In this document: one piece after another, positions 1-3,000 of the stretch
Layout: each line of letters begins with the position of its first letter
Position numbering within the stretch: position 1 is the stretch's first letter
Virus genome (UHGV): UHGV-2165552
Source: a virus
DNA: 11,784 nucleotides
Strand: one strand, 5' to 3'
Program-made: the position numbers

Positions 1-3000
1 CGCCAGCGCGATGTTGCTGCGCTCGATGCAAAATACTCGAGGGAATTAGCCGATGCGAGAGCTGAAAATGAAACTCTGCGTGCTGATGTTGCTGCTGGTC
101 GTAAGCGCCTGCGGATCAACGCCACCTGCTCCGGTACCGTGCGTGAAGCCACCGGCACCTCCGGCATGGATAATGCAACCGGCCCCCGACTGGCAGACAC
201 CGCTGAACGGGATTATTTCATCCTCAGAGAACGGTTGATGACAATGCAGAAGCAGCTGGAAGGGGCACAGGAATATATCCGCACTCAGTGCCTGAATTAA
301 CAGAGCCAGCTTAATCGCTGGCTTTTTCATATCTGAATTTCATCGCGCATCTCACGCGCATATCACATCCCCGAGCCTTTCAGAAAGTTGAGCCTGAGAA
401 CTGCCGTATATGGTGGCGACCATCTCGGGGCGGCTTTTCTGTGAGACAGGCTCAATTTTCTGAAAGGTAAGACGCTATGAACTATCCGACGATTGTTAAC
501 GGTATTGATTTCCGCGATCTTGTTTTTGTGACAGGCAACGAGCCGGTGACGGATACCCGAAAGGTTGCCGTAGCATTTGGCAAAGAACACAAAGATGTAT
601 TGCGGAAAACAAGAGCCGTTGTTCAACAATGCTCAAAAGAATTTGCAGAGCGCAATTTTGCGCTTTGCTATGAAAACAATGAGTTACAGAACGGTAAACC
701 CCAGCCCATATATCGAATGACAAAAGACGGTTGGACGATGTTGGTATTTGGTTTTACGGGGAAAGCTGCTATGACCTTTAAGGAAGCGTACATTCAGGCT
801 TTCAACTGGATGGCTGAGCTTATTCAGCAAGGTCTGGCGAATCTGGAGGCGGAGCGCAACGCTGTAATGCTGGAGTACATGAAAGAGAAAGATGTCGCCA
901 GTATGTCAGGTCGTTTGCTCAATCGCTGGGGCAGGGTGAAGAAGCCTCAGTTGCTGGCAAGGCTGGACAGGCTGGAGCAGCAGGGGCAGATTGCGTTACC
1001 CGGATTTGATAAAGGCATTTCAGCCTGACATAGCCATGCGCCGTATCGTCGCAGTATTCCCGCATTAACAGAGACCTCAGCCAGACACTGGACCTCCTGC
1101 GCGAGTGTGTGGGGATAATCAAAAACGATGCACACCGGGCTTTCCACGTTTTCAGGTAACGTGAGCGTTTTCCCGCATGGCCGCCTGTCCGGTGCGGTGG
1201 TGGAAGAAACCGGATAAAACAACCATATTGTGTAAATATCAATCAAACAAGACGCTGCTGTGTGAATTCTGAAAAATCACAGCGGTCATTATGCGTCAGT
1301 TTTTAACAGAGGACGTCAGAAAGTGACATGGCAAAGCTGGACTGGAAAAAACTGGAGCAGGCATTCCGACGCGAACATGCCGAAACGGGAATAACATTAC
1401 TGGAGTGGTGCCGTAAGAAAAAGATTAATTACAACACCGCCAGAACCCGTATAAAAATGGGCAAAATCGATCATGAAATCGATCATAAAACCGATCATGA
1501 AATCGATCATGACATCTCAGATGAAGAACCCAGCAATGACGCGGGTTCCGACGATGAAAAATGCGCAAAAAATTCTGAAAAAAACTGCGCAAATTCGGCA
1601 GAAACGAAACGCAACAGCAGATCGGGCAATCCTCACCCCGTTGCCCGGTTTAGCGACCGTAACACCCACGCCGTGAGACACCGTGGATATGCGAAGTATC
1701 TTGAGGCAGATAACCTCATGGATGATGCGTCCGATATGGTGCTGTTCGATGAACTGGTGTTCACCCGTGCCCGCGCACTTTCAGTAACAGGAACACTGAA
1801 AAAAATGTTCGCCGACCTGAAAGAGGCGGCTGACGTGGAAACCCGTGTTGCCCTGTACGACAAAATACTTAAAGCCGAACAGGCTCTTGACCGGAATATT
1901 GCCCGTATCGAGTCAATTGAACGCTCATTGCTGACGCTGGACGTTCTGGCGGAAACAGCACCAAAACTTCGTGCTGACCGGGAAAGAATCAACGCTGCCA
2001 GAGATAAACTCAGAGCGGAAACCGATATTCTGACCAGCCAGCGTCGAGGCGTTGTTACGCCTGTCAGTGACATCGTGTCATCGCTGCATGAAATGAGTAA
2101 TTCGGGGAGACTGGATGACATTCCGGAAGAATAAACCGCGATGTGATGAATCTGCAGAAATGACTGAGACCGAACAACGTCTGTTCATTATGACAAAACT
2201 GAGCAATCCCTGGTGGCGCCTCAATCATCTCTACAAAATACAGAACGAAAAAGGTGAACTGGTCACCTTCAGAATGCGACCGGCGCAACGTCAGTTGTTT
2301 CGTAACATGCATAATAAAAACATTATCCTGAAAGCGCGCCAGCTGGGATTTTCCACAGCCATTGATATTTATCTTCTCGACCAGGCATTATTCATTCCGC
2401 ATCTCAAATGCGGGATTGTCGCTCAGGATAAACAGGCTGCCAGTGAAATTTTCCGCACAAAAATTGCTGTACCGTTTGATCATCTCCCTGACTGGCTGAG
2501 AGCCTCATTCACCATCGTTGAACGTCGTAGCGGAGCCAGCGGTGGCTATATCCTGTTTGGTCACGGCTCGAGTATCCAGGTGGCAACCTCATTCCGTTCA
2601 GGTACGGTGCAGCGCCTGCATATCTCAGAGCACGGCAAAATTTGCGCAAAATATCCGGCTAAGGCGAAAGAACTGCGAACCGGTACACTTAATGCCGTCT
2701 CTGATGAGTGCATTATTTTTGATGAATCCACTGCTGAAGGTGTGGGTGGCGATTTTTACGAGATGAGTAACCGGGCACAGGAAATCACTGCATCAGGGCT
2801 GGCGCTGACGCCACAGGATTATAAATTCCATTTTTACGCCTGGTGGCAGGATCTCAAATACAGCGCCAGAGTGCCGGAAAGCGGACTTAAGCTGTCACGG
2901 GAAAAAACAGCGTATTTTTCTGCGGTTGAAAAAGCAATGAACATCACGCTTACCGATGAGCAGAAACACTGGTACATCTGCAAGGAAACTGAACAGCGTG

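Follow-up and report, generated by a model that had tools for sequence, protein, structure and literature searches.

The window analysed here is an 11,784-nucleotide stretch of virus genome UHGV-2165552, which covers the late region of an E. coli lambdoid prophage of the 933W type (Sepvirinae-like). Our subject is its 299-bp gap (1029-1327) between a rha-family gene, which ends at 1028, and terS, the small terminase subunit gene, which starts at 1328. An initial annotation had described this as the largest intergenic gap in the window, which it is because the remaining + strand gaps span 176 bp (301-476) and 157 bp (5966-6122) and an open + strand frame covers 10505 to the window end. Compared among related phages, as that annotation had suggested, the interval is strongly conserved and the conservation falls into blocks. 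The gap probably comprises three consecutive parts, a structured RNA element (part A), a variable linker (part B) and a terS leader (part C), none of which is likely to be a DNA packaging site. Part A lies apart from the sequence motifs noted initially, all of which fall in part C. The features of the locus are as follows.

1-300, + strand: 3' end of Rz (Pfam Phage_lysis)
477-1028, + strand: rha-family gene (Pfam PF09669, Phage_pRha, and PF10549, ORF11CD3)
1036-1215, + strand: part A, predicted conserved structured RNA element with sharp borders, AUGCGC ... GGAAGAAACCGGAU (covariance model and structure tests)
1216-1253, + strand: part B, A/U-rich variable linker (identity among relatives)
1254-1327, + strand: part C, conserved terS leader (identity among relatives)
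1328-2134, + strand: terS of the 933W type, 268 aa (PHROGs terminase small subunit, phrog_370, E 1.9e-119)
2115-3821, + strand: terL, 568 aa (named by PHROGs)
3821-5965, + strand: portal gene (named by PHROGs)

Predicted fold and covariation of part A

The helices of part A were taken from RNAalifold, single-sequence minimum free energy (MFE) folds and inspection, which agree on the following assignment.

1043-1049 / 1125-1131, + strand: P1, in the 5' domain (1043-1131)
1055-1064 / 1108-1117, + strand: P2, 5' domain; four pairs with compensatory changes
1076-1080 / 1097-1101, + strand: P3b, 5' domain
1081-1084 / 1088-1091, + strand: P3c hairpin, 5' domain
1136-1139 / 1172-1175, + strand: P4a, in the variable middle hairpin (1136-1175)
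1145-1150 / 1158-1163, + strand: P4b; sequence varies by lineage, pairing always kept
1180-1184 / 1194-1198, + strand: S1, crossing stem of the predicted pseudoknot; three pairs with double changes
1185-1186, + strand: pseudoknot loop L1, 2 nt
1187-1193 / 1209-1215, + strand: S2 (P5), second stem of the predicted pseudoknot; five pairs with double changes
1199-1208, + strand: pseudoknot loop L3, 10 nt, A-rich and nearly invariant (GGUGGAAGAA)

The element would begin with an irregular long hairpin (P1-P2-P3), followed by a variable one (P4) and, at its 3' end, by two stems, S1 and S2, which the computational analyses predict to form an H-type pseudoknot with an invariant A-rich loop. Compensated P2 stems read CCCGGA/UCCGGG in lambda in place of CCCGCA/UGCGGG, UCAUCGCA/UGCAAUGA in Salmonella phage 29485, UUUCCGCA/UGCGGAAA in contig L030 and AUCCCCGCA/UGCGGGGAU in L029. 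P4b occurs, by lineage, as CCGCG/CGCGG, CUGUG/CGCAG, CACG/CGUG or CAGC/GCUG. Compensation in P5 turns CCGG/CCGG into CCUG/CAGG, and S1 changes from GUCGC/GCGAU to CUCGC/GCGGG and to GCCAG/CUGGC; one S1 pair is found as GU (38), CG (22), UG (3) or AU (1), another as UA (36), UG (14) or CG (13), and a third as CG (55) or AU (6). The L184 group (phage GER2 type) retains the pseudoknot domain only, again with compensated stems (S1 GCAGC/GCUGU, S2 UAUCUG/CGGAUA). Invariant loops and junctions of part A read UUAAC, GAGUGU, AUAAUCAAAAAC and GGAAGAAA.

A covariance model of the element (R1; 198 positions, 39 pairs) matches the window once, at 1031-1227 (+ strand; 176.6 bits, E 7.5e-52), and finds 100 copies in 98 loci, which amount to 74 distinct variants. 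Among 36 representatives, 95.9% of the alignment cells were paired, compared with 34-61% when the 3' partners were slid by 1-3 columns, and 14 pairs were changed on both sides, a number reached by 0 of 500 shuffles. Over the 74 distinct rows and eight helices, 96.8% of cells were paired (32-65% with slid partners), and 15 pairs held 95 cells with double changes (3-24 cells in slid controls). Because lineage blocks swamp a ranking by mutual information with average product correction (MI/APC), a control set was built from 4,924 column pairs with complementary consensus letters. Non-consensus combinations were still paired in 59.8% of cases for structure pairs and 35.0% for controls; 19 of 23 kinds of double change were still paired in the structure, compared with 39% in the controls. 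None of 5,000 resamples reached the observed values.

G·U cells outnumber A·C cells by 145 to 17, an excess that favours the late-operon (+) strand. Read as the + strand, 95.9% of cells are paired, compared with 87.7% for the - strand; the corresponding alifold energies are -27.6 and -13.3 kcal/mol. Compensatory and G·U-compatible changes, together with this strand asymmetry, indicate at the level of sequence comparison that part A is a conserved structured RNA.

The initial annotation had also raised a small RNA or an unannotated short gene. The left block of the gap does behave as a structured RNA; a short gene is contradicted by the coding analyses. A protein-coding gene across 1036-1215 was rejected because the variants share no open frame, the variable columns show no 3-base periodicity (14/15/9 by codon phase) and the spacing between fixed anchors changes by amounts not divisible by three. 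That part A is a decayed gene or an unannotated small protein gene is very improbable. Various pipelines do call short open reading frames (ORFs) there, on either strand, and the window has a 10-codon ORF from 1036 and overlapping - strand ORFs of 99 and 107 aa; however, no frame is open in all variants, and the ATG at 1036 is GTG plus TGA in lambda and is absent from mEp332 and the Salmonella phage. Depositors annotate nothing at part A, or inconsistent tiny ORFs on either strand, and the Prokaryotic Genome Annotation Pipeline annotates nothing. No match to the 4,227 models of Rfam overlapped 1029-1327 at E up to 10; the window had no gathering-level matches, and the copies from lambda, BP-4795 and the Salmonella phage gave none at E up to 1. 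Neither the sequence of the element nor a description of it was found in a full-text and keyword literature search, most subscription journals being outside its scope and novelty thus unproven; part A is apparently undescribed in databases and literature.

Distribution and genomic context of part A

BLAST against phage records showed that 1036-1327 travels with the 933W-type terS. The interval is 100% identical in PhiR5_2, in which Rz lies directly upstream with no rha; in many Stx2a phages and the O104:H4 phage P13374, identity is 86%. The segment 1037-1214 alone is found, at 72-83% identity, 3' of the lysis genes in phages with other packaging modules. Lambda and mEp332 carry part A before the Nu1/A packaging module, BP-4795 and 2851 before HNH and an HK97-type terS, and Salmonella phage 29485 and phage IdasGreatGrand before other terS types; it also occurs in 434, 933W-like Shiga toxin (Stx) phages and the K-12 prophage DLP12. 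Homology ends abruptly at both borders, AUGCGC and GGAAGAAACCGGA.

In phages 2851, IdasGreatGrand, PhiR70_1 and PhiR49_1 the homology begins about 28 bp further left (window 1008-1035), within the last rha codons (GAUAAAGG.AUU...GCCUGA). This extension is non-coding in some of those phages and looks like a remnant of the end of an ORF11CD3-domain gene.

A degenerate pattern derived from the invariant columns matched at least 120 IMG/VR contigs; the IMG/VR matches listed and the annotated phages gave 90 distinct cores. Among species-representative genomes a strict pattern matched Escherichia only, plus obvious contaminant contigs. All the upstream Rz, Rha or orf48 genes that could be identified at 179 loci share the strand of the element; bor, a known opposite-strand moron, may sit between the upstream gene and part A. 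Downstream of part A the same loci show at least seven different modules, in all upstream/downstream combinations, including the 933W terS, Nu1, ybcV in reverse orientation, a likewise reversed DUF3950 gene with HNH and terS behind it, and further terS types. Part A is thus an autonomous unit at the junction of the lysis cassette and the next module.

Such mosaicism would also be expected of a recombination linker, a stretch of homology that serves swaps of lysis and packaging modules and has no RNA function. Besides the free combination of neighbours, the mosaic breakpoints at the borders of part A, the breakpoint within the element in the L184 group and the two copies around an inserted gene in contig L030 fit this explanation. 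It leaves unexplained the pairing-preserving changes (19 of 23 kinds against 39%, G·U to A·C at 145 to 17) and the invariant orientation, and we regard it as unlikely to be the whole account; the linker and RNA roles are compatible with each other.

Of 5,426 complete E. coli genomes, 4,140 have part A, and nothing is annotated there; the median copy number is 2 and the maximum, reached in O157:H7, is 11. Very many genomes thus carry the element without annotation, and it marks the boundary between lysis and packaging modules. Reference copies were located as follows.

Lambda: model match 46,862-47,045, core 46,868-47,033, flanked by bor and lambdap78; cos lies about 1.5 kb away
K-12 DLP12: 579,003-579,187, between borD and ybcV
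Sakai Sp3: 903,294-903,491

A + strand Rho-dependent 3' end has been mapped in K-12 at 579,345, ~160 nt downstream of the DLP12 copy (PMC7815308), and the part A strand is therefore transcribed in K-12.

Some copies are duplicated or truncated. Those of contig L030, at 5051-5247 and 6001-6197, bracket a + strand gene inserted between Rz and Nu1, and contig L056 has copies at 12449-12645 and 10713-10860, the second being a 53.7-bit remnant. Most of the 615 matching PLSDB records are conjugative IncF (ColV-type) plasmids with a shortened 5' half of the element. On plasmid pH2332-166 (L224, 1489-1626) this 5' half lies about 170 bp from iss, the bor homologue; it has the appearance of a relic from the lambdoid ancestry of that locus.

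The linker, the terS leader and the packaging-site question

Parts B and C were compared among relatives with 933W-type terS (100 to 73% protein identity). The linker, 67-80% identical, is the least conserved stretch, both flanks being more conserved, and would be drifting freely. The leader is 88-100% identical, compared with 66-97% for the first 300 nt of terS in the same relatives, and it travels with this terS type even without part A (L165). Two features were found in it.

1254-1286, + strand: predicted leader hairpin, stem 1254/1255-1262 with 1278-1285/1286, 15-nt loop; contains TGTGA/TCACA (centroid fold)
1291-1326, + strand: possible 11-codon leader ORF, MRQFLTEDVRK, with its TGA one base before the terS ATG (TGAcATG)

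The initial annotation had drawn attention to an inverted repeat, TGTGA (1261-1265) and TCACA (1277-1281), a direct repeat CGTCAG (1294-1299 and 1314-1319) and a GACGTC palindrome (1312-1317), and all of these are in the sequence where it placed them. In the register noted, TGTGA/TCACA pairs over 5 bp and the next pair is G/G. TGTGA-N(4-16)-TCACA occurs once in the window, and at least one match is found in 37 of 200 window shuffles; the motif alone is therefore not beyond chance. A better register has 8-9 pairs, (G)CUGCUGUG at 1254/1255-1262 with CACAGCGG(U) at 1278-1285/1286, and three one-sided changes in relatives leave the bases paired, with U·G becoming U-A, G-C becoming G·U and G·U becoming G-C. 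CGTCAG and GACGTC are 6-mers that are not conserved: the first CGTCAG is CATCAG in most relatives, and GACGTC is absent from L184 and L155. A CRP/FNR-type operator (TGTGA-N6-TCACA) was considered and rejected on spacing, which is N11 here.

The leader hairpin, and perhaps the leader ORF, plausibly set the level of terS translation, since the ribosome-binding site (RBS) of terS is weak; the initial annotation was fair on this point, GAAAGUGAC standing before the AUG. The ORF is open in 13 of 13 leader variants, with an ATG or GTG start, and is proposed with low confidence because all 7 of 7 substitutions are non-synonymous and it has no good RBS. The apical loop of P4b in part A (1149-1155, UUUUCAG) is perfectly complementary over 7 nt to the loop of the leader hairpin (1269-1275, CUGAAAA). 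In P13374 a 7-nt match persists with its register shifted (UUUUUCA/UGAAAAA); in L071 the match is broken. The complementarity may reflect a kissing-loop contact or chance between a U-rich and an A-rich loop.

A different role for the gap had been put forward initially, that of a cos- or pac-associated DNA site with integration host factor (IHF)-type or other sites. On such a reading TGTGA-N11-TCACA would be a protein operator. The leader, including the repeat, is as conserved as terS or more, varies together with the terS type and lies directly upstream of the gene. However, the scans for IHF sites and sigma-70 promoters that had been recommended came back empty: the IHF consensus WATCAANNNNTTR has no match in the whole window, and the gap holds no sigma-70-like promoter, nor an intrinsic terminator; no tRNA or transfer-messenger RNA was found. 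Substitutions within the repeat are compatible with RNA pairing that includes G·U, and depositors annotate the module as headful or circularly permuted. Phages whose packaging systems are unrelated also carry part A, which is the largest conserved block in the gap. The terS relatives at ~40% identity lack the gap altogether, the upstream stop abutting the ATG in most of them. We regard a packaging site in the gap as improbable. A lambda-type cos was rejected as well: terS belongs to PHROG 370 and not to Nu1, IHF consensus matches are lacking, and the lambda copy of part A is not at cos. A search for literature on the virion DNA ends of 933W gave nothing usable.

Repeat arrays within terS would make a better candidate.

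1464-1516: 12-bp tandem array with four GATC (Dam) sites exactly 12 bp apart (1469-1505), within terS just after the N-terminal domain
1557-1593: TGCGCA array within terS, with TGCGCA at 1562 and 1586

Distant terS relatives (to ~40% identity), which are gapless, share the TGCGCA arrays: they have 5-8 TGCGCA hexamers in the same gene region (+130 to +305 of terS in L178, L184 and L199-L215), in all three frames, and conservation is therefore at the DNA level. In P22, Sf6, SPP1 and P1, pac is located within the gene for the small terminase subunit, and Dam regulates the P1 site. Because of these precedents, the GATC and TGCGCA arrays (1464-1593) are, on sequence grounds, better candidates than the gap for the pac or TerS recognition region, which would shift the search for a packaging site in 933W-type phages from the gap to terS itself. 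The terS and terL genes (1328-3821), both without a Pfam-A match at E <= 0.01 and named by PHROGs only, belong to a packaging module that is widespread in Stx phages.

Possible roles of part A and comparison with known RNAs

We lean towards the view that lambdoid phages, including lambda itself (46,868-47,033), carry an unrecognised family of ~180-nt pseudoknotted late-operon RNAs whose function depends on the fold. Since it is encoded on the + strand, part A would be a structured RNA domain within the Q-dependent late (pR') transcript. It would represent a new class of functional RNA, carried by the most thoroughly studied phage and by the majority of E. coli genomes, and a functional fold would mean that the lambda-like late operon holds a regulatory or structural RNA missed for decades. 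Stx phages, whose late transcript also drives toxin release, are among the carriers. The compensatory variants point to informative mutations, and part A is easily testable in lambda.

Several points weigh against this view. The plain MI/APC ranking is dominated by lineage blocks and has 2 of its top 30 pairs in the structure. The MFE of the window copy is no better than that of shuffles (z = +0.5), thermodynamic z-scores are not significant for part A on either strand or for parts B and C, and stability alone gives no support to a part A RNA. All variants come from one recombining pool, that of Escherichia, Shigella and Salmonella phages, and the independent compensatory events therefore number roughly a dozen, not hundreds. 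The lambda copy scores lowest (135 bits), with a degenerate S1, and L024, L031 and L075 have a 16-17-nt deletion in the pseudoknot region. Any specific mechanism would be pure inference. In enterohaemorrhagic E. coli (EHEC), Hfq cross-linking gave no peak in the Sp3 junction, 903,124-903,797 (PMC4104026, Table S2). Two EHEC Hfq peak clusters could be placed, in Sp3 and Sp4, and both are downstream of Q. Other prophage peaks in that list, so far as they could be placed, fall elsewhere, and those of Sp5 presumably lie away from the Rz-terS junction.

Part A is autonomous, has the late sense, lacks a promoter and a terminator and sits where the transcript leaves the lysis genes. For these reasons, and by analogy, we tentatively propose a cis-acting boundary domain of the late mRNA, active in processing or stability. 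As a nuclease-processing and/or nuclease-resistant structure, it would fix and protect the end of the lysis message (3') and the start of the message downstream (5') across long untranslated or antisense stretches. Part A would not in general be the leader of the next gene, because the downstream genes are unrelated or oppositely oriented.

The closest parallels to a boundary domain are the RNase III signals of T7 (R1.1 and others) and lambda sib, which likewise separate genes on long antiterminated or polycistronic phage transcripts, have the form of an irregular hairpin interrupted by internal loops, and define mRNA ends and protect upstream messages. The predicted P1-loop-P2 arrangement of part A resembles their layout of lower stem, internal loop and upper stem. 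They differ in being single ~60-nt hairpins with no pseudoknot and no sequence relation, and the loops of part A are far more conserved than generic double-stranded RNA requires. Operators built on an H-type pseudoknot, such as the T4 gene 32 leader, share with part A stems of 5 bp and 7 bp, a short L1 and an L3 rich in A. In 933W-type phages the part A pseudoknot lies a fixed 113 nt upstream of a gene and is followed by an unstructured A/U-rich stretch. Unlike the gene 32 operator, most lambdoid part A pseudoknots precede unrelated or oppositely oriented genes, and they have no known binding protein. The put RNAs of HK022 are also folded RNAs in lambdoid operon transcripts and act in cis; they consist of two stem-loops of ~70 nt just downstream of early promoters and act on RNA polymerase, whereas part A is late, larger and unrelated in sequence.

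Part A might instead act in trans, as a phage non-coding RNA: once cut out of the late transcript, it would bind or sequester a protein of host or phage origin, possible targets being a nuclease, an RNA chaperone and a defence sensor. The unit is sharply bordered and independent of its neighbours, its size and complexity are like those of protein-binding RNAs, and its invariant loops exceed the needs of a simple stabiliser hairpin and therefore suggest specific contacts. On the other side, it has no promoter or terminator of its own, no Hfq peak has been placed on it, the sRNAs found in lambda by RNA interaction by ligation and sequencing (PreS/LPR1, LPR2 and 6S) map elsewhere, and it has no known partner. 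We would put the cis boundary role first, with protein binding in trans almost as likely.

An Hfq-dependent small RNA (sRNA) gene was tried and rejected, since part A has no promoter or terminator, its 3' flank is not U-rich and the Sp3 junction has no Hfq peak. Known sRNAs of lambdoid prophages (AgvB, AsxR, StxS, Pas, STnc100, 6S, LPR2 and PreS) come from the same phages, some of them from the late operon. They differ from part A in map position, between Q/pR' and the holin gene (AgvB, AsxR, Pas, STnc100 and Esr41) or in the early left operon; in lambda, PreS/LPR1 lies between ea10 and ral, whereas pR' is close to both LPR2 and 6S. All of these sRNAs are of the Hfq type, 50-200 nt long and equipped with terminators, and the Rfam models available for some of them do not match part A. 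The phi29 pRNA, ROOL and GOLLD are likewise ornate orphan phage RNAs, the pRNA being ~170 nt and tied to packaging; they have no sequence or fold relation to part A (no Rfam match) and differ in hosts and sizes. Lambda packaging in vitro requires no RNA.

A further hairpin, AGCCAGC-TTAATC-GCTGGCT followed by TTTTT (304-328), stands directly 3' of the Rz stop codon. A terminator scan called it on the - strand only; on the + strand it has the look of an intrinsic terminator, which late Q-modified transcription would need to read through.

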